Shown here one piece after another: positions 33,001 to 64,000 of a stretch of 64,000 bases of DNA. Every line of letters begins with the position of its first letter. Position 1 is the stretch's first letter. Origin of the DNA: Lingula anatina (Eukaryota > Animalia > Brachiopoda); NCBI GenBank assembly GCA_051362555.1, contig CM120642.1:14384001-14448000 (forward strand), read 5' to 3'. Below the pieces are notes generated by a model, which saw only the letters and a program-made list of their open reading frames with translations, was not told the DNA's origin and did no database searches. The position numbers and the translations under genes are program-made.

Positions 33001-36000
33001 AAATCTAATCTTGTTTTTCTTTTCTTTTTATATGACGAAGAAGATGATGAGGGACCCCACCCAGACATGGACTTCACACTTGGATCCAAGCTAAGGTAAG
33101 TAAATTTTATTTTTTGGGGGGGGCGGGAATGGTAAATTGAAGAAATCTAATCCTGTTTTTCGTTTCTTTTTACAGGACAAAGAAGATGATGAGCGCCCCC
33201 AACCGGACATGCACTTCACCCGTGGATCCAAGCTAAGGTAAGCAAATTTCATTTTTTTGGGGTGGCGGGAATGGTAAATTGAAGAAATCTAATCCTGTTT
33301 TTCTTTTCTTTTTACAGGATGAAGAAGATGATGAGGGACCCCACCCAGACATGGACTTCACTCTTGGATCAAAGTTAAGGTTAGTAAATTTCATTTTTTT
33401 GGGGTGGTGGGATGGGTAAATTGAAGAAATCTAATCTTGTTTTTCTTTTCTTTTTATATGACGAAGAAGATGATGAGGGACCCCACCCAGACATGGACTT
33501 CACACTTGGATCCAAGCTAAGGTAAGTAAATTTTATTTTTTTGGGGGGGCGGGAATGGTAAATTGAAGAAATCTAATCCTGTTTTTCGTTTCTTTTTACA
33601 GGACAAAGAAGATGATGAGCGCCCCCAACCGGACATGGACTTCACCCTTGGATTCAAGCTAAGGTTAGTAAATTTCATTTTTTGGGGTGGGGAGATTAGT
33701 AAATTGAAGAAATCTAATCCTGTTTTTCGTTTCTTTTTACAGGACAAAGAAGATGATGAGCGCCCCTTCCCAGACATGGACTTCACACTTGGATCCAAGC
33801 TAAGGTTAGTAAATTTTATTTTTTCGGTGTGGTGGGATGGGTAAATTGAAGAAATCTAATCTTGTTTTTGTTTTCTTTTTACAGAATGAAGAAGATGATG
33901 AGGGACCCCACCCAGATATGGACTTCACACTTGGATCCAAGCTAAGGTTAGTAAATTTCATTTTTTTGGGGTGGTGGGATGGGTAAATTAAATAAATCTA
34001 ATCTTGTTTTTCATTTCTTTTTACAGGATGAAGAAGATGAAGTGAGACCCGTACCGGACATGGACTTCACCCGTGGATCCAAGCTAAGGTAAGTAAATTT
34101 CATTTTTTTGGGGTGGCGGGAATGGTAAATTGAAGAAATCTAATCCTGTTTTTCGTTTCTTTTTACAGGACAAAGAAGATGATGAGCGCCCCCAACCGGA
34201 CATGGACTTCACCCTTGGATTCAAGCTAAGGTTAGTAAATTTCATTTTTTGGGGGTGGGGGGATTAGTAAATTGAAGAAATCTAATCCTGTTTTTCGTTT
34301 CTTTTTACAGGACAAAGAAGATGATGAGCGCCCCTACCCAGACATGGACTTCACACTTGGATCCAAGCTAAGGTTAGTAAATTTCATTTTTTTGGGGTGG
34401 TGGGATGGGTAAATTGAAGAAATCTAATCTTGTTTTTCTTTTCTTTTTACAGGATGAAGCAGATGATGAGGGACCCCACCCAGACATGGACTTCACACTT
34501 GGATCCAAGTTAAGGTTAGTAAATTTCATTTTTTGGGGGGTGATGGGGTTGGTAAATTGAAGAAATCTAATCTTGTTTTTCATTTCTTTTTACAGGACGA
34601 AGAAGATGAAGTGAGACCCCAACCGGACATGGACTTCACCCTTGGATCCAAGCTAAGGTAAGTAAATTTCATTTTTTTGGGGTGGCGGGAATGGTAAATT
34701 GAAGAAATCTAATCCTGTTTTTCGTTTCTTTTTACAGGACAAAGAAGATGATGAGCGCCCCCAACCGGACATGGACTTCACCCTTGGATTCAAGCTAAGG
34801 TTAGTAAATTTCATTTTTTGGGGGTGGGGGGATTAGTAAATTGAAGAAATCTAATCCTGTTTTTCGTTTCTTTTTACAGGACAAAGAAGATGATGAGCAC
34901 CCCTACCCAGACATGGACTTCACACTTGGATCCAAGCTAAGGTTAGTAAATTTTATTTTTTCGGGGTGGTGGGATGGGTAAATTGAAGAAATCTAATCTT
35001 GTTTTTCGTTTCTTTTTATAGGACGAAGAAAATGATGAGGGACCCCACCCGGAAATGGACTTCACACTTGGATCCAAGCTAAGGTTAGTAAATTTCATTT
35101 TTTTGGGGTGGTGGGATGGGTAAATTGAAGAAATCTAATCTTGTTTTTCTTTTTTTTTTTACAGGATGAAGAAGATGATGAGGGACCCCACCCAGACATG
35201 GACTTCACTCTTGGATCCAAGTTAAGGTTAGTAAATTTCATTTTTTTGGGGTGATGGGGTTGGTATATTGAAGAAATCTAATCTTGTTTTTCATTTCTTT
35301 TTACAGGACGAAGAAGATGAAGTGAGACCCCAACCGGACATGGACTTCACCCTTGGATCCAAGCTAAGGTAAGTAAATTTCATTTTTTTGGGGTGGCGGG
35401 AATGGTATATTGAAGAAATCTAATCCTGTTTTTCGTTTCTTTTTACAGGACAAAGAAGATGATGAGCGCCCCCAACCGGACATGGACTTCACCCTTGGAT
35501 TCAAGCTAAGGTTAGTAAATTTCATTTTTTAGGGGTGGGGGGATTAGTAAATTGAAGAAATCTAATCCTGTTTTTCGTTTCTTTTTACAGGACAAAGAAG
35601 ATGATGAGCGCCCCTACCCAGACATGGACTTCACACTTGGATCCAAGCTAAGGTTAGTAAATTTTATTTTTTCGGGGTGGTGGGATGGGTAAATTGAAGA
35701 AATCTAATCTTGTTTTTCGTTTCTTTTTATAGGACGAAGAAGATGATGAGGGACCCCACTCGGACATGAACTTCACACTTGGATCCAAGCTAAGGTTAGT
35801 AAATTTCATTTTTTTGGGGTGGTGGGATGGGTAAATTGAAGAAATCTAATCTTGTTTTTCTTTTATTTTTACAGGATGAAGAAGATGATGAGGGACCCCA
35901 CCCAGACATGGACTTCATTCTTGGATCCAAGTTAAGGTTAGTAAATTTCATTTTTTTGGGGTGATGGGGTTGGTAAATTGAAGAAATCTAATCCTGTTTT

Positions 36001-39000
36001 TCTTTTCTTTTTACAGGACGAAGAAGATGAAGTGAGACCCCAACCGGACATGGACTTCACCCTTGGATCCAAGCTAAGGTAAGTAAATTTCATTTTTTTG
36101 GGGTGGCGGGAATGGTAAATTGAAGAAATCTAATCCTGTTTTTCGTTTCTTTTTACAGGACAAAGAAGATGATGAGCGCCCCCAACCGGACATGGACTTC
36201 ACCCTTGGATTCAAGCTAAGGTTAGTAAATTTCATTTTTTGGGGGTGGGGGGATTAGTAAATTGACGAAATCTAATCCTGTTTTTCGTTTCTTTTTACAG
36301 GACAAAGAAGATGATGAACGCCCCTACCCAGACATGGACTTCACACTTGGATCCAAGCTAAGGTTAGTAAATTTCATTTTTTTGGGGTGGTGGGATGGGT
36401 AAATTGAAGAAATCTAATCTTGTTTTTCGTTTCTTTTTATAGGACGAAGAAGATGATGAGGGACCCCACCCGGACATGGACTTCACACTTGGATCCAAGC
36501 TAAGGTTAGTAAATTTCATTTTTTTGGGGTGGTGGGATGGGTAAATTGAAGAAATCTAATCTTGTTTTTCTTTTCTTTTTACAGGATGAAGAAGATGATA
36601 AGGGACCCCACCCAGACATGGACTTCACTCTTGGATCCAAGTTAAGGTTAGTAAATTTCATTTTTTTGGGGTGGTGGGGTTGGTAAATTGAATAAATCTA
36701 ATCTTGTTTTTCATTTCTTTTTACAGGATGAAGAAGATGAAGTGAGACCCCAACCGGACATGGACTTCACCCTTGGATCCAAGCTAAGGTAAGTAAATTT
36801 CATTTTTTTTGGGATGGCGGGAATGGTAAATTGAAGAAATCTAATCCTGTTTTTCGTTTCTTTTTACAGGACAAAGAAGATGATGAGCGCCCCTTCCCAG
36901 ACATGGACTTCACACTTGGATCCAAGCTAAGGTTAGTAAATTTTATTTTATCGGGGTGGTGGGATGGGTAAATTAAATAAATCTAATCTTGTTTTTCATT
37001 TCTTTTTACAGGACGAAGAAGATGAAGTGAGACCCCAACCGGACATGCACTTCACCCGTGGATCCAAGCTAAGGTAAGTAAATTTCATTTTTTTAGGGTG
37101 GCGGGAATGGTAAATTGAAGAAATCTAATCCTGTTTTTCTTTTCTTTTTACAGGATGAAGAAGATGGTGAGGGACCCCACCTAGACATGGACTTCACTCT
37201 TGGATCAAAGTTAAGGTTAGTAAATTTCATTTTTTTGGGGTGGTGGGATGGGTAAATTGAAGAAATCTAATCTTGTTTTTCTTTTCTTTTTATATGACGA
37301 AGAAGATGATGAGGGACCCCACCCAGACATGGACTTCACACTTGGATCCAAGCTAAGGTAAGTAAATTTTATTTTTTTGGGGGGGCGGGAATGGTAAATT
37401 GAAGAAATCTAATCCTGTTTTTCGTTTCTTTTTACAGGACAAAGAAGATGATGAGCGCCCCCAACCGGACATGCACTTCACCCGTGGATCCAAGCTAAGG
37501 TAAGTAAATTTCATTTTTTTGGGGTGGCGGGAATGGTAAATTGAAGAAATCTAATCCTGTTTTTCTTTTCTTTTTACAGGATGAAGAAGATGATGAGGGA
37601 CCCCACCCAGACATGGACTTCACTCTTGGATCAAAGTTAAGGTTAGTAAATTTCATTTTTTTGGGGTGGTGGGATGGGTAAATTGAAGAAATCTAATCTT
37701 GTTTTTCTTTTCTTTTTATATGACGAAGAAGATGATGAGGGACCCCACCCAGACATGGACTTCACACTTGGATCCAAGCTAAGGTAAGTAAATTTTATTT
37801 TTTTGGGGGGGCGGGAATGGTAAATTGAAGAAATCTAATCCTGTTTTTCGTTTCTTTTTACAGGACAAAGAAGATGATGAGCGCCCCCAACCGGACATGG
37901 ACTTCACCCTTGGATTCAAGCTAAGGTTAGTAAATTTCATTTTTTGGGGTGGGGAGATTAGTAAATTGAAGAAATCTAATCCTGTTTTTCGTTTCTTTTT
38001 ACAGGACAAAGAAGATGATGAGCGCCCCTTCCCAGACATGGACTTCACACTTGGATCCAAGCTAAGGTTAGTAAATTTTATTTTTTCGGTGTGGTGGGAT
38101 GGGTAAATTGAAGAAATCTAATCTTGTTTTTGTTTTCTTTTTACAGAATGAAGAAGATGATGAGGGACCCCACCCAGATATGGACTTCACACTTGGATCC
38201 AAGCTAAGGTTAGTAAATTTCATTTTTTTGGGGTGGTGGGATGGGTAAATTAAATAAATCTAATCTTGTTTTTCATTTCTTTTTACAGGATGAAGAAGAT
38301 GAAGTGAGACCCGTACTGGACATGGACTTCACCCGTGGATCCAAGCTAAGGTAAGTAAATTTCATTTTTTTGGGGTGGCGGGAATGGTAAATTGAAGAAA
38401 TCTAATCCTGTTTTTCGTTTCTTTTTACAGGACAAAGAAGATGATGAGCGCCCCCAACCGGACATGGACTTCACCCTTGGATTCAAGCTAAGGTTAGTAA
38501 ATTTCATTTTTTGGGGGTGGGGGGATTAGTAAATTGAAGAAATCTAATCCTGTTTTTCGTTTCTTTTTACAGGACAAAGAAGATGATGAGCGCCCCCTAC
38601 CCAGACATGGACTTCACACTTGGATCCAAGCTAAGGTTAGTAAATTTCATTTTTTTGGGGTGGTGGGATGGGTAAATTGAAGAAATCTAATCTTGTTTTT
38701 CTTTTCTTTTTACAGGATGAAGCAGATGATGAGGGACCCCACCCAGACATGGACTTCACACTTGGATCCAAGTTAAGGTTAGTAAATTTCATTTTTTTGG
38801 GGGTGATGGGGTTGGTAAATTGAAGAAATCTAATCTTGTTTTTCATTTCTTTTTACAGGACGAAGAAGATGAAGTGAGACCCCAACCGGACATGGACTTC
38901 ACCCTTGGATCCAAGCTAAGGTAAGTAAATTTCATTTTTTTGGGGTGGCGGGAATGGTAAATTGAAGAAATCTAATCCTGTTTTTCGTTTCTTTTTACAG

Positions 39001-42000
39001 GACAAAGAAGATGATGAGCGCCCCCAACCGGACATGGACTTCACCCTTGGATTCAAGCTAAGGTTAGTAAATTTCATTTTTTTGGGGTGGGGGGATTAGT
39101 AAATTGAAGAAATCTAATCCTGTTTTTCGTTTCTTTTTACAGGACAAAGAAGATGATGAGCACCCCTACCCAGACATGGACTTCACACTTGGATCCAAGC
39201 TAAGGTTAGTAAATTTTATTTTTTCGGGGTGGTGGGATGGGTAAATTGAAGAAATCTAATCTTGTTTTTCGTTTCTTTTTATAGGACGAAGAAAATGATG
39301 AGGGACCCCACCCGGACATGGACTTCACACTTGGATCCAAGCTAAGGTTAGTAAATTTCATTTTTTTGGGGTGGTGGGATGGGTAAATTGAAGAAATCTA
39401 ATCTTGTTTTTCTTTTTTTTTTACAGGATGAAGAAGATGATGAGGGACCCCACCCAGACATGGACTTCACTCTTGGATCCAAGTTAAGGTTAGTAAATTT
39501 CATTTTTTTGGGGTGATGGGGTTGGTATATTGAAGAAATCTAATCTTGTTTTTCATTTCTTTTTACAGGACGAAGAAGATGAAGTGAGACCCCAACCGGA
39601 CATGGACTTCACCCTTGGATCCAAGCTAAGGTAAGTAAATTTCATTTTTTTGGGGTGGCGGGAATGGTATATTGAAGAAATCTAATCCTGTTTTTCGTTT
39701 CTTTTTACAGGACAAAGAAGATGATGAGCGCCCCCAACCGGACATGGACTTCACCCTTGGATTCAAGCTAAGGTTAGTAAATTTCATTTTTTAGGGGTGG
39801 GGGGATTAGTAAATTGAAGAAATCTAATCCTGTTTTTCGTTTCTTTTTACAGGACAAAGAAGATGATGAGCGCCCCTACCCAGACATGGACTTCACACTT
39901 GGATCCAAGCTAAGGTTAGTAAATTTTATTTTTTCGGGGTGGTGGGATGGGTAAATTGAAGAAATCTAATCTTGTTTTTCGTTTCTTTTTATAGGACGAA
40001 GAAGATGATGAGGGACCCCACTCGGACATGGACTTCACACTTGGATCCAAGCTAAGGTTAGTAAATTTCATTTTTTTGGGGTGGTGGGATGGGTAAATTG
40101 AAGAAATCTAATCTTGTTTTTCTTTTATTTTTACAGGATGAAGAAGATGATGAGGGACCCCACCCAGACATGGACTTCATTCTTGGATCCAAGTTAAGGT
40201 TAGTAAATTTCATTTTTTTGGGGTGATGGGGTTGGTAAATTGAAGAAATCTAATCCTGTTTTTCTTTTCTTTTTACAGGACGAAGAAGATGAAGTGAGAC
40301 CCCAACCGGACATGGACTTCACCCTTGGATCCAAGCTAAGGTAAGTAAATTTCATTTTTTTGGGGTGGCGGGAATGGTAAATTGAAGAAATCTAATCCTG
40401 TTTTTCGTTTCTTTTTACAGGACAAAGAAGATGATGAGCGCCCCCAACCGGACATGGACTTCACCCTTGGATTCAAGCTAAGGTTAGTAAATTTCATTTT
40501 TTGGGGGTGGGGGGATTAGTAAATTGACGAAATCTAATCCTGTTTTTCGTTTCTTTTTACAGGACAAAGAAGATGATGAACGCCCCTACCCAGACATGGA
40601 CTTCACACTTGGATCCAAGCTAAGGTTAGTAAATTTCATTTTTTTGGGGTGGTGGGATGGGTAAATTGAAGAAATCTAATCTTGTTTTTCGTTTCTTTTT
40701 ATAGGACGAAGAAGATGATGAGGGACCCCACCCGGACATGGACTTCACACTTGGATCCAAGCTAAGGTTAGTAAATTTCATTTTTTTGGGGTGGTGGGAT
40801 GGGTAAATTGAAGAAATCTAATCTTGTTTTTCTTTTCTTTTTACAGGATGAAGAAGATGATAAGGGACCCCACCCAGACATGGACTTCACTCTTGGATCC
40901 AAGTTAAGGTTAGTAAATTTCATTTTTTTGGGGTGGTGGGGTTGGTAAATTGAATAAATCTAATCTTGTTTTTCATTTCTTTTTACAGGATGAAGAAGAT
41001 GAAGTGAGACCCCAACCGGACATGGACTTCACCCTTGGATCCAAGCTAAGGTAAGTAAATTTCATTTTTTTTGGGATGGCGGGAATGGTAAATTGAAGAA
41101 ATCTAATCCTGTTTTTCGTTTCTTTTTACAGGACAAAGAAGATGATGAGCGCCCCTTCCCAGACATGGACTTCACACTTGGATCCAAGCTAAGGTTAGTA
41201 AATTTTATTTTATCGGGGTGGTGGGATGGGTAAATTAAATAAATCTAATCTTGTTTTTCATTTCTTTTTACAGGACGAAGAAGATGAAGTGAGACCCCAA
41301 CCGGACATGGACTTCACCCGTGGATCCAAGCTAAGGTAAGTAAATTTCATTTTTTTGGGGTGGCGGGAATGGTAAATTGAAGAAATCTAATCCTGTTTTT
41401 CTTTTCTTTTTACAGGATGAAGAAGATGATGAGGGACCCCACCCAGACATGGACTTCACTCTTGGATCAAAGTTAAGGTTAGTAAATTTCATTTTTTTGG
41501 GGTGGTGGGATGGGTAAATTGAAGAAATCTAATCTTGTTTTTCTTTTCTTTTTATAGGACGAAGAAGATGATGAGGGACCCCACCCAGACATGGACTTCA
41601 CACTTGGATCCAAGCTAAGGTAAGTAAATTTTATTTTTTTGGGGGAGCGGGAATGGTAAATTGAAGAAATCTAATCCTGTTTTTCGTTTCTTTTTACAGG
41701 ACAAAGAAGATGATGAGCGCCCCCAACCGGACATGGACTTCACCCTTGGATTCAAGCTAAGGTTAGTAAATTTCATTTTTTGGGGTGGGGAGATTAGTAA
41801 ATTGAAGAAATCTAATCCTGTTTTTCGTTTCTTTTTACAGGACAAAGAAGATGATGAGCGCCCCTTCCCAGACATGGACTTCACACTTGGATCCAAGCTA
41901 AGGTTAGTAAATTTTATTTTTTCGGTGTGGTGGGATGGGTAAATTGAAGAAATCTAATCTTGTTTTTGTTTTCTTTTTACAGAATGAAGAAGATGATGAG

Positions 42001-45000
42001 GGACCCCACCCAGATATGGACTTCACACTTGGATCCAAGCTAAGGTTAGTAAATTTCATTTTTTTTATGGTGGTGGGATGGGTAAATTAAATAAATCTAA
42101 TCTTGTTTTTCATTTCTTTTTACAGGACGAAGAAGATGAAGTGAGACCCGAACTGGACATGGACTTCACCCGTGGATCCAAGCTAAGGTAAGTAAATTTC
42201 ATTTTTTTGGGGTGGCGGGAATGGTAAATTGAAGAAATCTAATCCTGTTTTTCGTTTCTTTTTACAGGACAAAGAAGATGATGAGCGCCCCCAACCGGAC
42301 ATGGACTTCACCCTTGGATTCAAGCTAAGGTTAATAAATTTCATTTTTTGGGGGTGGGGGGATTAGTAAATTGAAGAAATCTAATCCTGTTTTTCGTTTC
42401 TTTTTACAGGACAAAGAAGATGATGAGCGCCCCTACCCAGACATGGACTTCACACTTGGATCCAAGCTAAGGTTAGTAAATTTCATTTTTTTGGGGTTGT
42501 GGGATGGGTAAATTGAAGAAATCTAATCTTGTTTTTCTTTTCTTTTTACAGGATGAAGCAGATGATGAGGGACCCCACCCAGACATGGACTTCACACTTG
42601 GATCCAAGTTAAGGTTAGTAAATTTCATTTTTTTTGGGGTGATGGGGTTGGTAAATTGAAGAAATCTAATCTTGTTTTTCATTTCTTTTTACAGGATGAA
42701 GAAGATGATAAGGGACCCCACCCAGACATGGACTTCACTCTTGGATCCAAGTTAAGGTTAGTAAATTTCATTTTTTTGGGGTGGCGGGAATGGTAAATTG
42801 AAGAAATCTAATCCTGTTTTTCGTTTCTTTTTACAGGACAAAGAAGATGATGAGCGCCCCCAACCGGACATGGACTTCACCCTTGGATTCAAGCTAAGGT
42901 TAGTAAATTTCATTTTTTGGGGGTGGGGGGATTAGTAAATTGAAGAAATCTAATCCTGTTTTTCGTTTCTTTTTACAGGACAAAGAAGATGATGAGCACC
43001 CCTACCCAGACATGGACTTCACACTTGGATCCAAGCTAAGGTTAGTAAATTTTATTTTTTCGGGGTGGTGGGATGGGAAAATTGAAGAAATCTAATCTTG
43101 TTTTTCGTTTCTTTTTATAGGACGAAGAAGATGATGAGGGACCCCACCCGGGCATGGACTTCACACTTGGATCCAAGCTAAGGTTAGTAAATTTCATTTT
43201 TTTGGGGTGGTGGGATGGGTAAATTGAAGAAATCTAATCTTGTTTTTCTTTTTTTTTTACAGGATGAAGAAGATGATGAGGGACCCCACCCAGACATGGA
43301 CTTCACTCTTGGATCCAAGTTAAGGTTAGTAAATTTCATTTTTTTGGGGTGATGGGGTTGGTAAATTGAAGAAATCTAATCTTGTTTTTCATTTCTTTTT
43401 ACAGGACGAAGAAGATGAAGTGAGACCCCAACCGGACATGGACTTCACCCTTGGATCCAAGCTAAGGTAAGTAAATTTCATTTTTTGGGGGGGCGGGAAT
43501 GGTAAATTGAAGAAATCTAATCCTGTTTCTCGTTTCTTTTTACAGGACAAAGAAGATGATGAGCGCCCCCAACCGGACATGGACTTCACCCTTGGATTCA
43601 AGCTAAGGTTAGTAAATGTCATTTTTTGGGGGTGGGGGGATTAGTAAATTGAAGAAATCTAATCCTGTTTTTCGTTTCTTTTTACAGGACAAAGAAGATG
43701 ATGAGTGCCCCTACCCAGACATGGACTTCACACTTGGATCCAAGCTAAGGTTAGTAAATTTCATTTTTTTGGGGTGGTGGGATGGGTAAATTGAAGAAAT
43801 CTAATCTTGTTTTTCGTTTCTTTTTATAGAACGAAGAAGATGATGAGGGACCCCACCCGGACATGGACTTCACACTTGGATCCAAGCTAAGGTTAGTAAA
43901 TTTTATTTTATCGGGGTGGTGGGATGGGTAAATTAAATAAATCTAATCTTGTTTTTCATTTCTTTTTACAGGACGAAGAAGATGAAGTGAGACCCCAACC
44001 GGACATGGACTTCACCCGTGGATCCAAGCTAAGGTTAGTAAATTTCATTTTTTGGGGGCGGGGGGATTAGTAAATTGAAGAAATCTAATCCTGTTTTTCG
44101 TTTCTTTTTACAGGACAAAGAAGATGATGAGCGCCCCTACCCAGACATGGACTTCACACTTGGATCCAAGCTAAGGTTAGTAAATTTTACTTTTTCGGGA
44201 TGGTGGGATGGGTAAATTGAAGAAATCTAATCTTGTTTTTCTTTTCTTTTTACAGGATGAAGAAGATGATAAGGGACCCCACCCAGACATGGACTTCACT
44301 CTTGGATCCAAGTTAAGGTTAGTAAATTTCATTTTTTTGGGGTGGTGGGATGGGTAAATTAAATAAATCTAATCTTCTTTTTCATTTCTTTTTACAGGAC
44401 GAAGAAGATGAAGTGAGATCCCAACCGGACATGGACTTCACCCTTGGATCCAAGCTAAGGTAAGTAAATTTTATTTTTTTGGGGTGGCGGGAATGGTAAA
44501 TTGAAGAAATCTAATCCTGTTTTTCGTTTCTTTTTACAGGACAAAGAAGATGATGAGCGCCCCCAACCGGACATGGACTTCACCCTTGGATTCAAGCTAA
44601 GGTTAGTAAATTTCATTTTTTGGGGTGGGGAGATTAGTAAATTGAAGAAATCTAATCCTGTTTTTCGTTTCTTTTTACAGGACAAAGAAGATGATGAGCG
44701 CCCCTTCCCAGACATGGACTTCACACTTGGATCCAAGCTAAGGTTAGTAAATTTTATTTTTTCGGTGTGGTGGGATGGGTAAATTTAAGAAATCTAATCT
44801 TGTTTTTGTTTTCTTTTTACAGAATGAAGAAGATGATGAGGGACCCCACCCAGATATGGACTTCACACTTGGATCCAAGCTAAGGTTAGTAAATTTCATT
44901 TTTTTGGGGTGGTGGGATGGGTAAATTAAATAAATCTAATCTTGTTTTTCATTTCTTTTTACAGGACGAAGAAGATGAAGTGAGACCCCAACCGGACATG

Positions 45001-48000
45001 GACTTCACCCGTGGATCCAAGCTAAGGTAAGTAAATTTCATTTTTTTGGGGTGGCGGGAATGGTAAATTGAAGAAATCTAATCCTGTTTTTCGTTTCTTT
45101 TTACAGGACAAAGAAGATGATGAGCGCCCCCAACCGGACATGGACTTCACCCTTGGATTCAAGCTAAGGTTAGTAAATTTCATTTTTTAGGGGTGGGGGG
45201 ATTAGTAAATTGAATAAATCTAATCCTGTTTTTCGTTTCTTTTTACAGGACAAAGAAGATGATGAGCGCCCCTACCCAGACATGGACTTCACACTTGGAT
45301 CCAAGCTAAGGTTAGTAAATTTCATTTTTTTGGGGTGGTGGGATGGGTAAATTGAAGAAATCTAATCTTGTTTTTCTTTTCTTTTTACAGGATGAAGCAG
45401 ATGATGAGGGACTCCACCCAGACATGGACTTCACACTTGGATCCAAACTAAGGTTAGTAAATTTCATTTTTTTGGGGTGGTGGGATGGGTAAATTGAAGA
45501 AATCTAATCTTGTTTTTCTTTTTTTTTTACAGGATGAAGAAGATGATGAGCGCCCCTACCCAGACATGGACTTCACACTTGGATCCAAGCTAAGGTTAGT
45601 AAATTTCATTTTTTTGGGGTGGTGGGATGGGTAAATTGAAGAAATCTAATCTTGTTTTTCGTTTCTTTTTATAGGACAAAGAAGATGATGAGGGACCCCA
45701 CCCGGACATGGACTTCACACTTGGATCCAAGCTAAGGTTAGTAAATTTCATTTTTTTGGGGTGGTGGGATGGGTAAATTAAAGAAATCTAATCTTGTTTT
45801 TCTTTTCTTTTTACAGGATGAAGAAGATGATGAGGGACCCCACCCAGACATGGACTTCACTCTTGGATCCAAGTTAAGGTTAGTAAATTTCATTTTTTTT
45901 GGGGTGGTGGGGTTGGTAAATTGAAGAAATCTAATCTTGTTTTTCATTTCTTTTTACAGGACGAAGAAGATGAAGTGAGACCCCAACTGGACATGGACTT
46001 CACCCTTGGATCCAAGCTAAGGTAAGTAAATTTCTTTTTTTGGGGGGTGGCGGGAATGGTAAATTGAAGAAATCTAATCCTGTTTTTCGTTTCTTTTTAC
46101 AGGACAAAGATGATGATGAGCGCCCCCAACCGGACATGGACTTCACCCTTGGATTCAAGCTAAGGTTAGTAAATTTCATTATTTTGGGGTGGGGGGATTA
46201 GTAAATTGAAGAAATCTAATCCTGTTTTTGGTTTCTTTTTACAGGACAAAGAAGATGATGAGTGCCCCCAACCGGACATGGACTTCACCCTTGGATTCAA
46301 GCTAAGGTTAGTAAATTTCATTTTTTTGGGGTGGTGGGATTGGTAAATTGAAGAAATCTAATCTTGTTTTTCTTTTCTTTTTACAGGCTGAAGAAGATGA
46401 TGAGGGACCCCACCCAGACATGGACTTCACTCTTGGATCAAAGTTAAGGTTAGTAAATTTCATTTTTTTGGGGTGGTTGGATGGGTAAATTGAAGAAATC
46501 TAATCTTGTTTTTCTTTTCTTTTTATAGGACGAAGAAGATGATGAGGGACCCCACCCAGACATGGACTTCACACTTGGATCCAAACTAAGGTTAGTAAAT
46601 TTCATTTTTTTGGGGTGGTGGGATGGGTAAATTGAAGAAATCTAATCTTGTTTTTCGTTTCTTTTTATAGGACAAAGAAGATGATGAGGGACCCCACCCG
46701 GACATGGACTTCACACTTGGATCCAAGCTAAGGTTAGTAAATTTCATTTTTTTGGGGTGGTGGGATGGGTAAATTGAAGAAATCTAATCTTGTTTTTCTT
46801 TTCTTTTTACAGGATGAAGAAGATGATGAGGGACCCCACCCAGACATGGACTTCACTCTTGGATCCAAGTTAAGGTTAGTAAATTTCATTTTTTTTGGGG
46901 TGGTGGGGTTGGTAAATTGAAGAAATCTAATCTTGTTTTTCATTTCTTTTTACAGGACGAAGAAGATGAAGTGAGACCCCAACTGGACATGGACTTCACC
47001 CTTGGATCCAAGCTAAGGTAAGTAAATTTCTTTTTTGGGGGGGTGGCGGGAATGGTAAATTGAAGAAATCTAATCCTGTTTTTCGTTTCTTTTTACAGGA
47101 CAAAGATGATGATGAGCGCCCCCAACCGGACATGGACTTCACCCTTGGATTCAAGCTAAGGTTAGTAAATTTCATTATTTTGGGGTGGGGGGATTAGTAA
47201 ATTGAAGAAATCTAATCCTGTTTTTGGTTTCTTTTTACAGGACAAAGAAGATGATGAGTGCCCCCAACCGGACATGGACTTCACCCTTGGATTCAAGCTA
47301 AGGTTAGTAAATTTCATTTTTTTGGGGTGGTGGGATTGGTAAATTGAAGAAATCTAATCTTGTTTTTCTTTTCTTTTTACAGGCTGAAGAAGATGATGAG
47401 GGACCCCACCCAGACATGGACTTCACTCTTGGATCAAAGTTAAGGTTAGTAAATTTCATTTTTTTGGGGTGGTTGGATGGGTAAATTGAAGAAATCTAAT
47501 CTTGTTTTTCTTTTCTTTTTATAGGACGAAGAAGATGATGAGGGACCCCACCCAGACATGGACTTCACACTTGGATCCAAACTAAGGTTAGTAAATTTCA
47601 TTTTTTTGGTTTGGTGGGATGGGTAAATTAAATAAATCTAATCTTCTTTTTCATTTCTTTTTAAAGGACGAAGAAGATGAATTGAGACCCCAACCGGACA
47701 TGGACTTCACACTTGGATCCAAGCTAAGGTAAGTAAATTTCATTTTTTGGGGGTGGCGGGAATGGTAAATTGAAGAAATCTAATCCTGTTTTTCGTTTCT
47801 TTTTACAGGACAAAGAAGATGTTGAGCGCCCCCAATCGGACATGGACTTCACCCTTGGATTCAAGCTAAGGTTAGTAAATTTCATTTTTTGGGGGTGGGG
47901 AGATTAGTAAATTGAAGAAATCTAATCCTGTTTTTCGTTTCTTTTTACAGGACAAAGAAGATGATGAGCGCCCCTACCCAGACATGGACTTCACACTTGG

Positions 48001-51000
48001 ATCCAAGCTAAGGTTAGTAAATTTCATTTTTTTGGGGTGGTGGGATGGGTAAATTGAAGAAATCTAATCTTGTTTTTCGTTTCTTTTTATAGGACGAAGA
48101 AGATGATGAGGGACCCCACCCGGACATGGACTTCACACTTGGATCCAAGCTAAGGTTAGTAAATTTCATTTTTTTGGGGTGGTGGGATGGGTAAATTGAA
48201 GAAATCTAATCTTGTTTTTCTTTTCTTTTTACAGGATGAAGAAGATGATGAGGGACCCCACCCAGACATGGACTTCACTCTTGGATCCAAGTTAAGGTTA
48301 GTAAATTTCATTTTTTTGGGGTGGTGGGGTTGGTAAATTGAATAAATCTAATCTTGTTTTTCATTTCTTTTTACAGGATGAAGAAGATGAAGTGAGACCC
48401 CAACCGGACATGGACTTCACCCTTGGATCCAAGCTAAGGTAAGTAAATTTCATTTTTTTGGGGTGGCGGGAATGGTAAATTGAAGAAATCTAATCCTGTT
48501 TTTCGTTTCTTTTTACAGGACAAAGAAGATGATGAGCGCCCCCAACCGGACATGGACTTCACTCTTGGATTCAAGCTAAGGTTAGTAAATTTCATTATTT
48601 TGGGGTGGGGGGATTAGTAAATTGAAGAAATCTAATCCTGTTTTTGGTTTCTTTTTATAGGACAAAGAAGATGATGAGGGACCCCACCCAGATATGGACT
48701 TCGCTCTTGGATCCAAGCTAAGGTTAGTAAATTTCATTTTTTTGGGGGTGGCGGAATGGTAAATTGAAGAAATCTAATCCTGTTTTTCGTTTCTTTTTAC
48801 AGGACAAAGAAGATGATGAGCGCCCCCAACCGGACATGGACTTCACCCTTGGATTCAAGCTAAGGTTAGTAAATTTCATTTTTTGGGGTGGGGGGATTAG
48901 TAAATTGAAGAAATCTAATCCTGTTTTTGGTTTCTTTTTACAGGACAAAGAAGATGATGAGCGCCCCTACCCAGACATGGACTTCACACTTGGATCCAAG
49001 CTAAGGTTAGTAAATTTCATTTTTTCGGGTTGGTGGGATGGGTAAATTAAAGAAATCTAATCTTGTTTTTGTTTTCTTTTTACAGAATGAAGAAGATGAT
49101 GAGGGACCCCACCCAGATATGGACTTCACTCTTGGATCCAAGCTAAGGTTAGTAAATTTAATTATTTTGGGGTGGGGGGATTAGTATATTGAAGAAATCT
49201 AATCCTGTTTTTGGTTTCTTTTAACAGGACAAAGAAGATGATGAGCGCCCCTACCCAGACATGGACTTCACACTTGGATCCAAGCTAAGGTTAGTAAATT
49301 TCATTTTTTCAGGGTGGTGAGATGGGTAAATTGAAGAAATCTAATCTTGTTTTTGTTTTCTTTTTACAGAATGAAGAAGATGATGAGGGACCCCACCCAG
49401 ATATGGACTTCACTCTTGGATCCAAGCTAAGGTTAGTAAATTTCATTTTTTTGGGGTGGCGGGAATGGTAAATTGAAGAAGTCTAATCTTGTTTTTCGTT
49501 TCTTTTTACAGGACGAAGAAGATAATGATCGAGGGACCCCACCCGGACATGGACTTTACCCTTGGATCCAAGCTAAGGTTAGTAAATTTCATTTTTTTGG
49601 GGTGGCAGGAATGGTAAATTGAAGAAATCTAATCCTGTTTTTCGTATCTTTTTACAGGACAAAGAAGATGATGAGCGCCCCTACCCAGACATGGACTTCA
49701 CACTTGAATCCCAGCTAAGGTTAGTAAATTTCATTTTTTCGGGGTGGTGGGATGGATAAATTGAAGAAATCTAATCTTGTTTTTCTTTTCTTTTTACAGG
49801 ATGAAGAAGATGATGAGGGACCACACCCAGACATGGACTTCACTCTTGGATCCAAGTTAAGATTAGTAAATTTCATTTTTTTGGGGTGGTGGGATGGGTA
49901 AATTGAAGAAATCTTATCTTGTTTTTCATTTCTTTTTATAGGACGAAGAAGATGATGAGGGACCCCACCCGGACATGGACTTTACTCTTGGATCCAAGCT
50001 AAGGTTAGTAAATTTCATTTTTTTGGGGTGGTGGGATTGGCAAATTGCATAAATCTAATCTTGTTTTTCGTTTCTTTTTACAGGACAAAGAAGATGAAGT
50101 GAGACCCCAACCGGACATGGACTTCACTCTTGGATCCAAGCTAAGGTTAGTAAATTTCATTTTTTTGGGGTGGTGGGATTGGTAAATTGCATAAATCTAA
50201 TCTTGTTTTTCGTTTCTTTTTACAGGACAAAGAAGATGAAGTGAGACCCCAACCGGACATGGACTTCACCCGTGGATCCAAGCTAAGGTTAGTAAATTTC
50301 ATTTTTTGGGGGTGGGGGGATTAGTAAATTGACGAAATCTAATCCTGTTTTTCGTTTCTTTTTACAGGACAAAGAAGATGATGAACGCCCCTACCCAGAC
50401 ATGGACTTCACACTTGGATCCAAGCTAAGGTTAGTAAATTTCATTTTTTTGGGGTGGTGGGATGGGTAAATTGAAGAAATCTAATCTTGTTTTTCGTTTC
50501 TTTTTATAGGACGAAGAAGATGATGAGGGACCCCACTCGGACATGGACTTCACACTTAGATCCAAGCTAAGGTTAGTAAATTTCATTTTTTTGGTGTGGC
50601 GGGAATGGTAAATTGAAGAAATCTAATCCTGTTTTTCGTTTTTTTTTACAGGACAAAGAAGATGATGTGCGCCCCTACCCAGACATGGACTTCACACTTG
50701 GATCCCAGCTAAGGTTAGTAAATTTCATTTTTTTGGGGTGGTGGGATGGGTAAATTGAAGAAATCTAAACTTCTTTTTCGTTTCTTTTTACAGGACGAAG
50801 AAGATGATGAGGGACCCCACCCGGACATGGACTTCACTCTTGGATCCAAGTTAAGGTTAGTAAATTTCATTTTTTGGGGGTGGTGGGATTGGTAAATTGA
50901 AGAAATCTAATCCTGTTTTTCGTTTCTTTTTACAGGACGAAGAAGATGATGAGTGCCCCCAACCGGACATGGACTTCACCCTTGGATTCAAGCTAAGGTT

Positions 51001-52551
51001 AGTAAATTTCATTTTTTTGGGGTGGTGGGATGGGTAAATTAAATAAATCTAATCTTGTTTTTCATTTCTTTTTACAGGACAAAGAAGATGAAGTGAGACC
51101 CCGACCGGACATGGACTTCACCCTTGGATCCAAGCTAAGGTTAGTAAATTTCATTTTTTTTGAGTGGTGGGATTGGTAAATTGAAGAAATGTAATCCTGT
51201 TTTTCGTTTCTTTTTACAGTACAAAGAAGATGATGAGCGACCCCATCCGGACATGGACTTCACTCTTGGATCCAAGTTAAGGTTAGTAAATTTCATTTTT
51301 TTGGGGTGGTGGGATTGGTAAATTGAAGAAATCTAATCCTGTTTTTCGTTTCTTTTTACAGGACGAAGAAGATGATGAGTGCCCCCAACCGGACATGGAC
51401 TTCACCCTTGGATCCAAATTAAGGTAAGTAAATTTAACTTTTTTGGGGTGGTGGGATTGGTAAATTGAAGAAATCTAATCTTGTTTTTCGTTTCTTTTTA
51501 TAGGACAAAGAAGATGAAGTGAGACCCCAACCGGACATGGACTTCACTCTTGGATCAAAGCTAAGGTAAGTAAATTCCATTTTTTGGGGGTGGTGGGATT
51601 GGTAAATTGAAGAAATGTAATCCTGTTTTTCGTTTCTTTTTACAGGACAAAGAAGATGATGAGCGCCCCTACCCAGACATGGACTTCACACTTGGATCCA
51701 AGTTAAGGTAAGTAAATTTCATTGTTTTGGGGTGGTGGGATGGGTAAATTGAGGAAATCTTATCTTGTTTTTCGTTTCTTTTTACAGGACAAAGAAGATG
51801 ATGAGCGACCCCACCCGGACATGGACTGCACTCTTGGATCCAAGTTAAGGTAAGTAAATTTAATTTTTTTGGTGGGTGGTGGGATTGGTAAATTGAAGAA
51901 GTCTAATCTTGTTTTTTATTTCTTTTTACAGGACAAAGAAGATGATGAGCGACCCCACCGGGACATGGACTTCACTCTTGGATCCAAGCTACAGTTAGTA
52001 AATTTCACTTTTTTGGGGGTGGTGGGATTGGTAAATTGAAGAAATCTAACCCTTTTTTTGTTTCTTTTTACAGGACAAAGAAGATGATGAGCGCCCCTAC
52101 CAAGATATGGACTTCACACTTGGATCCAAGTTAAGGTAAGTAAATTTTATTTTTTATGGGGTGGTGGGATGGGTAAATTGAAGAAATCTAATTTTGTTTT
52201 TCGTTTCTTTTTACAGGACAAAGAAGATGATGAGCGACCCCACCCGGACATGGACTGCACTCTTGGATCCAAGTTAAGGTAAGTAAATTTCATTGTTTTG
52301 GGGTGGTGGGATGGGTAAATTGAAGAAGTCTAATCTTGTTTTTTTCGTTTCTTTTTACAGGACTAAGAAGATGAACTGCGACCCCACCCGGACATGGACT
52401 TCCCCCTTGGATCCAAGCTAAGGTTAGTAAATTTCATTTTTTTGGGGTGGTGGGATTGGTAAATTGAAGAAATCTAATCCTGTTTTTCGTTTCTTTTTAC
52501 AGGACAAAGAAGATGATTAGCGACCCCACCCAGACATGGACTCTTGGATCC
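1..52551 (+). repeat. Tandem (satellite-like) array of ~142-bp monomers, about 370 copies in the window, open at the left edge; each monomer has exon-intron architecture on the + strand
   Basis: Seen directly: monomer ~ GACAAAGAAGATGATGAGCGCCCCCAACCGGACATGGACTTCACCCTTGGATCCAAGCTAAG|GT(T/A)AGTAAATTTCAT(6-8)GGGGTGGTGGGATGGGTAAATTGAAGAAATCTAATC(C/T)TGTTTTTCGTTTCTTTTTACAG repeated head-to-tail with no insertions noticed. Copy number is 52551/142, not a direct count. Most monomers carry GGATCC (BamHI) within the 12-bp palindrome CTTGGATCCAAG. Confidence 0.98.
831..892 (+). other. Representative 62-nt exon-like unit of the array (DKEDDERPQPDMDFTLGFKL + AG)
   Basis: Preceded by CTAAT...TTTTTCGTTTCTTTTTACAG (AG at 829-830) and followed by GTTAGT at 893. 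The splice signals are seen in sequence; actual splicing is inferred. Confidence 0.6.
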
Positions 52552-52639
52552 GGAAGACCCAGAAGATTTTCAATTTTAATGTAATATTACACAATGCTTA
52601 ACAGCAAAATAACCATTAATTTTTTAATAATAAAATAAA
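52503..52639 (+). other. Putative terminal exon of the array transcript with in-frame TAG and poly(A) signals
   Basis: Last acceptor TTTTTACAG ends at 52502. GAC AAA GAA GAT GAT TAG follows (stop 52518-52520). The monomer is abandoned after CTTGGATCC at 52551 with no donor. Overlapping AATAAA hexamers at 52629-52634 and 52634-52639, in AT-rich sequence where they could arise by chance. Confidence 0.45.
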
Positions 52640-53039
52640 AGTATCATGGACATTCAAAAAATGTGACTAGCTCATATAGTTCAGAGTCACACTTTGAAAA
52701 TCCCCAAATGTAAAGAAAAGAAAATGTATTGAGAAGAGGTTATGTCCATTTTCAACACCTTTTTTACATAAAACAAAATAATCAATTTACTGTCATTTTT
52801 ATATGATCAATTGAAAAAAATGTTGTCAAAGGAAAAAATAACAATGGAACAGATTCTTAACTTAGTGAATGATTGAATCTGACGAACTGCATAATGTGCA
52901 GGTCTACAATTTTTATATAATCAACTAACAATATTGTTAAGAAGCAGAAAATATCAAAACAACACTCTTACATATCCAATTATTTCCATAATGAGACTAT
53001 TAACATGCCTTAGAATTAAATCTAAAGAAAAAAAACACT

Positions 53040-54120
53040 TATTTATATATAAAAAAGGCTAATAACTTTATCAAAACTTAACTGATCAAGCTTATTTTCA
53101 AACTTGATCTGTATATTAGTCAGACTGATCACTCCTGTGAGTTTCAAGACTAAAGGCTGATTGGTTTTCCTGAAAATGCGTTAGCAGTCTTGCATATATG
53201 CTGAATAAAAAAAAAAACGGCTAACTTTTGTAAAAATAGTCCGGTCAAGCTGATTTTCGAACTTGACCTGCGTATTATTAGTATATTCATCAGTTTTGTA
53301 AGTTTCAAGCCAAAAGGTAAAAATGGTTTTCCACTTATCGTGTTATCGGTGCTGCATATATGCAGAAAAAAAAACAAAAAAAACAGAATAACTTCCCTAA
53401 AAATTGCCCGATCATGCTGACTTTCGAACTTGACCTACGTATTATGAGAATATTCATCAGTTTTGTAAGTTTCAAGCCAAAAGGTAAAATCATTTTCCAC
53501 TTATCATGTTATCGGTGCTGCATATATGCTGAAAAAAGTGAAAAAAAAAAAAAAAAAACTGCATAACTTCCCTAAAAATTGCTCGATCATGCTGATTTTC
53601 GAACTTGACCTGCGTATTATGAATATTGATCAATTCAGTGTCTGTACATAAATATGGCCTGATCATCCTGATTTTCAAACTTGGCCTGCATATTACAGTA
53701 TGAATATTTAACAGTCCTGTAAGTTTCAAGGAAAAAAAGGGTTTTTCACTTATCGTGTTATCAGGGTACGTTGCATATATGATCAAAAAGTGAAAAAACA
53801 GCATAACTTTTATAACAATGGCCCGATGATGCTGATTTTTAAATTTGACCTGCGTATTATGAATATTCATCAGTTCTGTAAGTTTCAAGCCAAAAGGTAA
53901 AACGGTTTAATTTTTACTTATCGTGTTATCGCGGTGTTATAAAAATGCTGAAAAAAGTGAAAAAACAGCATAACTTCCATGAAATGGCCCGATCACGCTG
54001 ATTTTCGAACTTGACCTGCGTATTATGAATATTCATCAGTTCTGTAAGTTTGAAGCCAAATGGTAAAATGGTTTTCCACTTATTTGTGTTATCGGTAAAA
54101 GTGCACGCCGACGGCGACAT
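53040..54120. repeat. Degenerate tandem cluster of ~165-bp units (about 6-7 copies), probably the internal repeats of a non-autonomous DNA element
   Basis: Core GATTTTCGAACTTGACCTGCGTATTAT...AATATTCATCAGTT.TGTAAGTTTCAAGCCAAAAGGTAAAA..GGTTTTCCACTTATCGTGTTATC recurs at ~53093, 53252, 53419, 53594, 53670, 53834 and 54000 (spacings 159, 167, 175, 76, 164, 166). The TE origin is inference. Confidence 0.85.
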
Positions 54121-54315: not shown

Positions 54316-54355
54316 GTCATGTGATTTTTACGTTGATCGAAAGTTCTCATGTGAT
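54316..54355 (+). promoter_or_regulatory. Two TCATGTGA E-boxes (MITF/TFEB M-box/CLEAR-like) in the CLN5 proximal promoter
   Basis: TCATGTGA at 54317-54324 and 54347-54354, 30 bp apart and within 60 bp of the ATG of a lysosomal gene. MiT/TFE factors are known to bind TCAYGTGA. Confidence 0.6.
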
Positions 54356-54372: not shown

Positions 54373-57038
54373 ATGGCGGACAGGCTGTCGAGTAGCAGTA
54401 GGTTGTTGTTGTTTCTTGCCGCTATGTTTGCGGCCCTAGTTTTAACAGACGGTATTTCATGGCCAGTTCCATACAAGTAAGTATTTAGACGTAGCGCTTA
54501 CGCATCTAAAGTAATATAAATAGTAAGAGCCTGAGTCTGACTGACACTATTAGTCTAATAAGGATACCTAATCCCGTAGCCGGCGTTGGGAGGAGTGTGT
54601 GTTTGTGGGGGGAGAGAGGGGTAGTATATATACGTTAACACTTCTGTTTACGGTATCTGATATTTACTATTTGTGCACATATCAAAAGACGGAAATATTA
54701 ATAAATTAACCATAGCAAAAGTATTTAATTGCCAGTTTTTGCCATTTTTCAGGAGATACAATGGACGCCCAAAGACTGACCCCTACTGTCAGGCACTCTT
54801 CCCATTCTGTCCCACTGGGCGTGGGAATGGTTCTATGCCAAAGATGCAGTCATCAGACATTATAGAAATATATGCTCTGAAAGCACCAGTGTTTGAGTTT
54901 AAATTTGGAGATCTACTTGGCAAATTTGTAAGTTTTTTGTGCCATTATTTTAGTACTAACTTCCATTCCAAAATCAGTGGTTGACATTTGAAATGTTAAA
55001 TACTTTAATAACCATTGCAACATTTTATGAAAGTAATTAACACATTACACTGAAGAAAAAAAAAAGAATATGTTCCTTATGGATTTTTCAGATCTTTTCT
55101 AATTCATTATTATTTAAAAAAAAAACATTTCAAACTTGATGAGTTCAGAGTTAGTGCCTTAGACCCCATTCCCAGAGATGGGATCGATCCAACTAGATCG
55201 ACCTAACTCCCTGGGGGTTCATGCTAAATAGGTGTCAGCCACGCAGGCACAATAGTTAATTACCCCCTTATAGCTTGTAGTAGGCGGGACGGACATTTAA
55301 GCCAGATTATCTGAAAGTAATCTAGTGAGACTCCCCACAGGGATAGATCGATCTAAAATCTATGGGAATGCGCCCTTTGAGTCAGGCATTTATACTGGCA
55401 CTGTGCCACATATTTTTCTCACCAGATCTTTTGAAAAAAATAAGAAACAAAATTTTCCTCTTTGTAGAACATAATCCACGATGCCCTTGGGTTCAAGAAT
55501 ACCAGGACTGGCCTGAACTATACCATGGAATGGTATGAGCTGTTTGAGCTGTTTAACTGCACCTTTCCTCATGTCTTTCAAAATGATACCATGCTGTGGT
55601 GTAACCAGGGTGCAGCATGTATTTATAATGGAATTGATGACATCCACTGGTCTCAGAATGGAACTCTGGTGAAAATTGGAGAAATGACAGGTACGTTTAG
55701 GATCAGATGGACTGTATCAAGGGTTTTAACAAAGTAATGTTAACTGGGAAGATATAGAATGAAAAACGATAATAAGCCAAATAAATAAGGTCAATTATTT
55801 TTTAAAAATCCTAATTGATATAATATTCAGGGTTGAGACTGCCATTTAGTGAAAAAGTGGGAAAATATGGCATTGTGGGTTCAGGGGGCTGCCTGGTTCC
55901 TTTCTTTTTTTTTTTTTTTTTGCTCCTAAAATGTCAGAAATCTTGATAGCTGGAAAAATCTCATCCATGAGTAATGCTTCATTCTGTCTGAAAGTAGAAC
56001 ACCATTATTTCAGTCATTATTTTAACAACTCACGTAATTCATTTCACAATTTTATATTTCAAAGGTGACCAGTTTTCTCATTTTTCGACATGGGCACTGG
56101 GGGACAATACATCATCCATCTACTATGAAACATGGACTGTTGAACAAGAGCCAGGTATGACATTTAAATTAATATTTAAGAAAAAAATTGGATTTGGAAA
56201 TCATAAATAATGATAAAATTCCAAATTGTGCAGCAAGCACGTTTAATTAGTCACCACCAGTATGTAGCCAGTTTTCATTGTAATATACTTATAATCTCTT
56301 ATCTCTGGTTTAAGATAATCAGTGTGAATAGATAGCAAAACAACAGTCAATTTACTATTATTGAATAAATAGGACCATGAATATAGCATTGTCATTTTAT
56401 TAATTATTGCAAAATCAGACTATCTTGAAAATCTTTGGCATGAGAAACAAACAGAAAAATTAACATTTTTTATCTTTCCTTTTGCCATTTACTTTTTTTA
56501 TCATTTAGGGTATAAACCAGGTACGTATAGAGAGAGATAGCACTTAACCTTCATATCAGAATGAATATGATAATGATAAATACACAGTGCACCCATCAAT
56601 CAAATTAAAATGATCCCCTTTATTTCAGGTGGCAAGATGTGGTTTGAGCCCCATGACTGTGCCACCTGGGTCAAAGATGCCATAGTGGTCCTGGGCAAAG
56701 TGGGGGCAAAGTTCAACACCAGCATTCATCTCAACTACACCAAGATCCACCTGTACAGTGATGAACCACAGTACCTGGGAAACTATTCCTCTATCTTCGG
56801 ACCCAATGGAAACCAGACTTTAGCCAAGGACATGCTGGCTTTTTTCAAAGATTTCCAGGCTCATCAGTCATTCTTTCACCTTCTACAGAGCATGTTTGAC
56901 GCCTTTGACAGAGTTTTTGAGAAGAGGCAGTTTTATTTGTTTTACAATTTTGAGTACTGGCTCTTAAAAATGAAGGCTCCATTTTTTAAACTGGATTATA
57001 CATATGTGCCTCTTCCTGGTCAAAAGAAATTCCCTTGA
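54373..57038 (+). CDS. CLN5: CLN5 lysosomal protein (bis(monoacylglycero)phosphate synthase), 333 aa; exons 54373-54476, 54753-54927, 55468-55690, 56065-56154, 56629-57038
   Basis: Five GT-AG exons join in frame (104+175+223+90+410=1002 nt). Signal-peptide-like N-terminus, then CLN5 motifs [82 protein letters not shown], recognised from recall of human CLN5. The His, Glu and Cys catalytic residues appear present. Confidence 0.96.
55162..55375. mobile_element. 214-bp MITE in CLN5 intron 2, PIF/Harbinger (Tourist)-like
   Basis: Left end GACCCCATTCCCAGAGATGGGATCGATC versus reverse complement of right end GGGCGCATTCCCATAGATTTTAGATCGATC. Flanks are TTA (left) and TTT (right), compatible with a decayed TTA target duplication. 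The superfamily assignment is inference. Confidence 0.6.
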
Positions 57039-58142
57039 GTGTCGAAAATGTATGTGCTTGTCCTACAAAGGGGTATTTGTTAATAGTAAAATGCAATGTT
57101 AAACAGCTCTTGAAAGACAGCCCCAGATTGTAAGGGTAAATCGATCTCAGTTGTGATATGCAACAAACAGTTCAGGTATTTCATACAGACCGAGTGAGTG
57201 CAATGTTCAGGATTTCATTCAACATAGTTTTAAGCTACATACACATTGATAGCATACTTCATAATTCACACCTGTATAATTACCTCATTTAATCATACTT
57301 TAAATCGGCATTGCTTATTTTTTCACATGTACATATTTTGTTAAATTTCAAAGATGATTAAAATATTGACTCAAATCAAAAATGTTTTATACATAAAAAG
57401 ATATTTACTCTAAACAAAAAACGTCATAAAAATATAATACCACATAAAAGTTAGAATGCTATTATACATACAACGGTCTTATAATGACTATTTTAACATT
57501 TGGAGCTATGCTATATACATGCATCTCTGGCTGTTGGAATGTCAAAATATCATATGTCAGTTTTTTCCACAGAAATTAGCGTAAAAAGATATAGATCCAA
57601 AGACTAATCAAAGTCCTAATATGTCCGTGTTGTATTGAGATGGGGGACTTGTATAAGACAATTGTGATAACGTCAATCACAGTGCAACTTTGGGAACAAA
57701 TTATCTGGATATTGTGCCCCTGCACTCCTTTGCTTGTCTGCACAATTTGATATTTTTTTATAAATATCTATCTGTCCATTCAACTGGTAATCTTGTCATG
57801 GAGCAAAGGTTTGAAAACACTAATAATTTCAGATTACAGTTGAAGTTCTTGATGTAAGTAAATGCACAAAAAATTCAAATGCCAAAGGGAAAAGTGCAAG
57901 CTTCCAAAGGATGAGCAAAGTCTCCATTCATCAACCTGATGAGAAGATTTTTGAGTGCACCTGTCTGAGTATACCTCACTTTGACATATTACATTATGTT
58001 CAAATAATTTGTTGCTGGGCTCTGTGTAACAACTTTATAATAGATTTAATACCACAGAGACCTCTAGATACACCCTCTGTTCAACACAACTGTTACTATC
58101 TGAATCCATCGGTCAATTGTCTATAAATAGTGGCAGCATTGT

Positions 58143-60771
<2,629 letters not shown>

Positions 60772-63611: not shown

Positions 63612-64000
63612 GTGAGTGAATGTGTTTGTTGTGGTGAAAAAAAATTGTTACCATCAGGTTGTGCTGGGTGAATGTGTTAGTTGTTCCAAATGCAGTCACT
63701 GTGGTTTGGAAATGCTCTGTAAATAACATTATTGCAGTAACTGATAAGCCTGGCTTTTGCCAATATCCTTACCTGTTGTCAAGTTTTACACATGCTAAAG
63801 TAAATAAATATTTTACAATCTTTTGAGAAAGAGATCAAGAAGTGAGTTGTGTTTTCTTAACATTTGCCTTTTAAAGTTTTTCTCTGGTCAAAGTCACTTT
63901 AACATAATATATCACTGTTAGTACCATAATTGCTAATGACATTTGACATTCATCCTTCCTCCTCAAATATTTTAAAAATACATCTTTATTGTTTTCAAAT

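Follow-up and report, generated by a model that had tools for sequence, protein, structure and literature searches.

The last monomer of an exon-intron satellite in Lingula anatina is probably a broken array edge abutting a likely mitochondrial insert

When a tandem array is composed of units that each resemble an exon with its intron, its last unit can be read either as the terminal exon of a gene or as the point at which a satellite breaks off. This question is raised by a 64-kb stretch of Lingula anatina DNA (contig CM120642.1, positions 14,384,001 to 14,448,000; hereafter the window, in whose numbering all positions are given), which harbors about 370 tandem units of 142 bp on the plus strand (3..52551). 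A sequence-only reading had assigned the last of these monomers as the original last exon of a gene, equipped with a stop codon and followed by its poly(A) signal. The present analysis argues against this assignment, since no RNA read covers 52545-52580, the DNA behind the array is a copy of an opposite-strand sequence, and the exon lies outside any spliced reading frame. With a probability of about 0.68 the last monomer is instead the broken, decaying edge of an exon-plus-intron satellite, cut at 52551 and adjoining a likely mitochondrial insert in reverse orientation.

The repeat units are arranged head to tail with a period of 142, each comprising a 62-nt exon-like and an 80-nt GT-AG intron-like part. 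The array is at least 52 kb long and extends beyond the left end of the window. For all counts given below, the 369 complete units were divided at the donor, and the truncated last monomer was treated separately. As first split, the exon-like part measures 62 nt in 348 of the 369 units; nine exons first scored as 65 nt are also 62 nt after correct placement of the acceptor, and nine exons are 59 nt. The donor starts with GT in 368 of the 369 units, mostly in the forms AAG/GTTAGT (n = 264) and AAG/GTAAGT (n = 96), where the slash denotes the exon end, and the acceptors are mostly TACAG or TATAG. No clean higher-order repeat is found, only weak minima at 18, 23 and 30 units. In each of the nine shorter recurrent exons exactly 3 nt are missing, and unspliced open frames of 103-104 codons arise where the units measure 141 bp. 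The array motif had no match in metagenome contigs, and no account of this array or of an exon-intron-cassette satellite was found in the literature of open-licence PubMed Central and bioRxiv. A search of Rfam gave three matches only, all far below the gathering score. A function as mirtron or snoRNA host was rejected, because shuffled sequences fold as well as the intron, the exon and the last monomer do (z from -0.05 to 1.08).

Towards its right end the array passes through the penultimate exon-like unit (52361..52422, plus strand), the last one with a donor, which contains a frame-0 stop of its own (TAA, 52364-52366). It is followed by the last intron-like unit (52423..52502, plus strand) with a GTTAGT donor, a branch-like CTAAT at 52474-52478, a T-tract and a TACAG acceptor ending at 52502; all acceptor elements described earlier are in place, and the fold of this intron is not unusual (z = 0.19). 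The truncated last monomer itself (52503..52551, plus strand) spans 49 of the 62 exon positions. It carries the TAG at 52518-52520 that had set it apart, GATGATTAG occurring in 0 of the 369 other exons, and the previously noted 5-nt deletion near 52542 is real, the deleted form GGACTCTTGG being present once in the window. As had also been seen correctly, the repeat is left after GGATCC at 52551 and the donor is missing. Splice acceptor motifs are accordingly present and a donor is absent, and use of this acceptor is observed in 0 reads. A short junction stretch (52552..52568) connects the array to the start of homologous read cover, which begins within the bin 52559-52580, and further downstream the two overlapping AATAAA motifs are located at 52629 and 52634 (52629..52639, plus strand), 78 nt past the array end. 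The peptide LDPEDPEDFQF with its following stop is readable in another frame, as had been pointed out, but a TGA near the exon start closes that frame; the peptide is for this reason unreachable from the acceptor and was rejected as a C-terminus.

The significance attached to the stop codon and to the poly(A) motif is not upheld by their frequencies. Frame-0 stops are flagged in 5 of the 369 other exons, the penultimate one included, and go back to three substitutions, one frameshift and one anchoring artefact. A frame-0 stop arises from 6 of the 180 single exon changes, and four of these six possible stop alleles occur in the array. Among ten rare exon changes in the last ten copies, two stops are seen where 0.33 are expected (P about 0.045), a slight excess that makes full dismissal impossible. 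Outside the array, AATAAA is found ten times in 11.4 kb and is present in 7% of the 100-nt windows; inside the array it occurs 50 times, and the tail consists of 74% A+T. An occurrence beyond chance is not confirmed. Rare substitutions, on the other hand, amount to 2.33 per copy in copies 360-368 versus 0.26 in copies 0-359, a roughly ninefold difference, and most interior copies have identical or near-identical partners, which the edge copies do not. This end of the array thus shows both attributes by which a satellite edge is recognized, namely a last monomer that is cut short and edge copies enriched in private variants.

Nor does the stop codon of the last monomer end a spliced reading frame. 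Frame 0 is open in 364 of the 369 exons, which encode 71 distinct peptides, while frame 1 contains stops in 366 and frame 2 in all 369. As every join of 62-nt exons shifts the frame, a spliced chain runs into a stop within two exons, and consequently the stop in the last copy ends nothing; the spliced products of the array cannot code. The common exon alleles lean towards synonymous changes in frame 0 (10 of 37 vs 16 of 137; Fisher P = 0.034, compared with P = 1 in frames 1 and 2), a bias, one among several tests, that is gone when all alleles are included (P = 0.45). Together with the 3-nt losses, this lean hints at the trace of a coding ancestor and not at present constraint. A parent protein for the exon was found neither among 179 candidates at E up to 1 nor among 1.84 billion representatives, the query of only about 20 residues being a weak one. 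With the same weak 20-residue query, the exon peptide reached a best score of 0.79 in the ESM Atlas, which is below chance level, and had no Pfam match; an annotated protein carrying the array peptide was not found either, a second search giving no candidate.

Six of nine same-species RNA runs (X1-X4, X7 and X9) were compared with the window, 6-30% of each run being read. Three of the four runs on the array end are poly(A)-selected and one is an oligo-dT run. In a run search with 51932-52900, no RNA run was listed as containing this sequence. At 82% likeness 108 reads fall on 52361-52580 (X1 47, X2 26, X3 34 and X9 1); 0 of the 108 are 99% alike, and their depth, summed over the runs, does not exceed about 35, shared among whatever copies the family has. 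Transcripts running from the last exon into the tail, as predicted for a terminal exon, are not seen: 0 of the 108 reads cover 52545-52580 and read depth is zero from 52545 onwards in four of four runs, although the power of this test is weak. Every loose end listed after 52542 continues with the undeleted exon and not with the tail. A pile-up of read ends is absent among those listed, standard RNA-seq being a poor test for poly(A) sites.

For the repeat family as such, the splicing of 62-nt exons and the plus polarity put forward in the sequence-only reading are both corroborated. Reads join the exon end directly to the exon start at AAG/GAC, in X1 in rows of eight and four plus a three-read joint and in X3 in rows of eight and three (rows may share reads); X2 and X9 yield no such rows. 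In the X1 joint the first mate is on the minus strand in 3 of 3 reads, which in the usual stranded library denotes plus-strand RNA, and the junction coincides with plus-strand GT-AG sites. Intron-covering reads are present too, with a depth of 4-12, and run in both directions in X2 and X3. Family copies are thus transcribed on the plus strand at low level and spliced at GT-AG sites, as seen for family members that may lie outside the window. The base at 52518 is G in 28 of 31 minus-mate X1 reads and in 10 of 12 X3 reads, the other five not being G. Three of three array-type motifs of the reads have 0 matches in the window copies, and in another test five of seven motifs are absent. It follows that the expressed copies are located elsewhere or that the animals are of another lineage, which renders the refutation of the terminal exon a soft one; the array RNA may come from another lineage or from other copies. 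In this regard, Amami L. anatina is possibly a different species and L. anatina maybe a species complex, as indicated in PMC8146825. The exon-joined form could in principle exist as DNA too. Some junction reads originate from much more diverged exon copies, with one junction being 2 nt shorter, which would preserve the frame, and these point to older copies or to a parent locus outside the window.

The sequence behind the array had been described as a unique tail, which is incompatible with the about 1000-9600 reads per run that derive from sequence 85-95% similar to it. At 85% likeness, 1037 (X1), 1158 (X4), 9577 (X7) and 1150 (X3) reads map to 52361-53000; nearly all of them lie on 52559-52998, are less than 95% alike and continue into unlike sequence. 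In the bin 52625-52646, 96-99% of the depth has its first mate on the plus strand in the stranded runs X1, X3 and X4, an orientation opposite to that of the spliced array reads, and the consensus of the loose ends is identical in runs from three studies. From this orientation and the shared consensus it follows that an abundant RNA of the minus strand has a diverged copy in the tail (52553..53058, minus strand).

As to the origin of this RNA, the minus strand contains a frame that is open over 144 codons (52627-53058) under NCBI table 5, whereas with the standard code no frame is open for more than 54; a run of 144 codons is attained in 25 of 5000 dinucleotide shuffles. In the tail as a whole the frame comprises eight TGA and two TAA codons. 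Openness under the mitochondrial code only, a hallmark of nuclear mitochondrial insertions (NUMTs), is thereby found, and a minus strand that stays open over this length only if TGA is read as sense points to a likely NUMT, in which the AATAAA motifs would be the antisense of T-rich codons. Judged from the sequence, the tail would probably be a NUMT of an unassigned Lingula mitochondrial ORF. On the minus strand the AATAAA pair corresponds to the codons CTT TTA TTT TAT TAT of the table-5 frame, which spell Leu-Leu-Phe-Tyr-Tyr, and at 52638 the window is contradicted by 250 of 275 homologous X1 reads. Irrespective of whether the tail is a NUMT or a nuclear repeat, the AATAAA pair is situated in foreign, opposite-strand sequence. 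Among the rows listed there are 34 differences between tail and reads, 27 of which were classed and seven left out for low depth or share. The table-5 frame is the sole one of six in which the 27 classed differences create no new stop, and one difference removes a stop; synonymous differences are not enriched in it (7 of 27 vs 9 in one plus-strand frame). By eye, the loose ends fit the table-5 frame with TGA as sense over 52621-52810 and a different minus frame over 52851-52891. A weak internal period of 114 nt (38 codons) is also discernible. In Lingula mitogenomes all genes lie on the same strand, and repeats as well as ORFs without an assignment are present (PMC8146825, PMC8381911); published mitogenomes, at about 63% A+T, are less A+T-rich than the tail (74%), a point against a mitochondrial source. 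None of five peptide motifs was found in the text supplement of PMC8146825, and open-licence PubMed Central and bioRxiv yielded no account of Lingula uORF repeats. The tail protein matches no Pfam family, and two PDB matches (E 0.34-0.35) were taken as chance. A bacterial origin (TGA = Trp) was rejected, with 0 of 105 pattern matches confirmed in GTDB genomes.

Downstream of the tail, a degenerate 167-bp tandem repeat of six to seven copies (53050..54100) presumably resembles the repeats at the centre of bivalve elements of the Helentron type. It is followed by the CLN5 gene (54373..57038, plus strand; Pfam CLN5), whose last exon is 100% identical over 135 aa to a Lingula anatina protein. The motif TCATGTGA occurs twice in the window, at 54317-54324 and 54347-54354, both less than 60 nt upstream of the CLN5 ATG; this count is at chance (2 vs 2.14 expected), the position stands out, and we take the pair to resemble the CLEAR/M-box sites of lysosomal genes. 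By eye, the remainder presumably harbors a centrin-like EF-hand gene convergent with CLN5 (about 58100-60770, minus strand) and an NSDHL-like dehydrogenase gene (61940-63620, plus strand).

The array exons share their end phase, phase 2, with CLN5 exon 1 (54373-54476), and splicing of an array exon to CLN5 exon 2 would consequently keep the frame; no such join is present among the loose ends listed. The shared phase, along with the mostly open frame 0 and its 71 peptides, would suit units that serve as mutually exclusive coding exons of the Dscam kind, one of them being joined in frame to a downstream exon. This arrangement is nevertheless extremely improbable, given that the reads join array exons to each other and not to a unique exon, that some expressed copies, inspected by eye, have frame-0 stops, and that searches for an annotated protein containing the peptide came up empty.

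Worked out as a model, the sequence-only reading would have the array grow by duplication at a GGATCC microhomology of the last two exons, with the AATAAA as the original poly(A) signal of the gene. The intact acceptor, the TAG unique to this copy, the loss of the donor exactly after GGATCC and the AATAAA 78 nt further on are all in line with such a history, as are the polarity and splicing of the family, and the synonymous lean of the common alleles and the shorter exons hint at the coding ancestor it requires. It is very unlikely all the same: the would-be 3' UTR copies a transcript of the opposite strand, beginning no more than about 20 nt beyond the array, the junction is crossed by 0 reads, the frame-0 bias disappears with all alleles, most of the possible stop alleles occur in the array, and the parent protein was not found, in a search that is weak for a 20-aa exon. 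An unlikely variant takes the edge to be a secondary break and has array transcripts end there by now through an AATAAA acquired with the insert, i.e. an exapted poly(A) signal. With its acceptor intact and no donor following, the last monomer would indeed be defined as the last exon of any transcript that reaches it, a canonical AATAAA is available, and the read test is of low power; yet 0 of 108 reads lie at the junction, although poly(A)-selected and oligo-dT runs should favour a true 3' end, and the read ends listed do not pile up. That the array in its full length of at least 52 kb constitutes one spliced non-coding gene with hundreds of near-identical 62-nt exons, ending here via a poly(A) signal taken over from mitochondrial DNA inserted in antisense, is quite improbable; if true, a satellite would also be a gene, capped by organelle DNA.

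Apart from these readings, the edge could be broken as proposed and the tail be of nuclear origin, either as a repeat or as the decayed duplicate of another gene's UTR. The absence of database matches and of synonymous enrichment, the 114-nt periodicity and the adjoining 167-bp repeat, which could belong to a mobile element, are consistent with a nuclear tail, which, as an explanation of its own, we nonetheless consider quite unlikely in view of the frame that is open with TGA as sense only and of the predominance of a single strand-specific source, whose loose-end consensus agrees between the runs of three studies. The verdict on the terminal exon would be the same with a nuclear tail, the weight of which is partly counted inside the best explanation.

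The best explanation, a satellite edge cut at 52551 next to a likely mitochondrial insert, can be described as a series of events. Judging from the unit anatomy, one exon together with its intron would have been amplified head to tail, the ancestral exon having presumably once been coding. The interior, in contrast to the edge, would then have been homogenised, leaving the edge copies to gather private changes such as the TAG; the gradient is observed, and homogenisation is its putative cause. The final exon may have lost its last 13 nt and its donor through a break or deletion, with repair taking place next to or with the insert. Insertion of NUMTs at DNA breaks is a known process. The AATAAA pair would be a by-product of the T-rich codons of the insert. 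The low-level plus-strand transcription of family copies, with splicing at their GT-AG sites, would give non-coding RNA, and a 3' end of array transcripts at the last monomer is a candidate only.

The supposed terminal exon is therefore probably an ordinary array edge, and the interest of the locus resides in the array and in the insert at its junction. In an array of at least 370 units, the monomer is a working exon-intron cassette whose family members are spliced in reads. The array provides a direct example of gene structure giving rise to a satellite, and in it nature has set up a test of what the spliceosome does with splice sites that are nearly identical and number in the hundreds. From the likely NUMT the age of the edge could be estimated, and a mitochondrial ORF of Lingula may be preserved in it.

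In order to place the locus among known systems, it can be compared to exon clusters, organelle insertions, repeat-containing RNAs and satellites. Dscam-type clusters consist of mutually exclusive exons, one of which per transcript is joined to constant exons. The Lingula array likewise contains many variant tandem copies of one short exon, but here consecutive exons are joined together, a flanking constant exon is not seen, and the introns are homogenised along with the exons. The tail shares with NUMTs that it is a diverged nuclear sequence at a sequence junction, open with TGA as sense only and homologous to an abundant one-strand RNA; it differs from them in matching no standard mitochondrial protein family, and its membership is a putative one. 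The lncRNA Firre contains the RRD, a discontinuous local repeat in its exons (PMC4820808), and the family members resemble it in that the exons of a spliced, non-coding RNA contain one recurring repeat. Nuclear retention and hnRNPU binding through the repeat are traits of Firre; in Lingula, unlike in the RRD, the repeat unit takes in the intron as well as the exon and recurs at least 370 times in head-to-tail order, so that the array is not a member of this class. In satellite arrays in general, terminal monomers are truncated and variable (PMC11663013, PMC9859433). The Lingula array agrees with these in its truncated last monomer, in an edge more variable than the homogenised interior and in abutting other repeats, whereas it departs from them in that its unit is a complete spliceable exon-intron cassette, family members of which are spliced in RNA.
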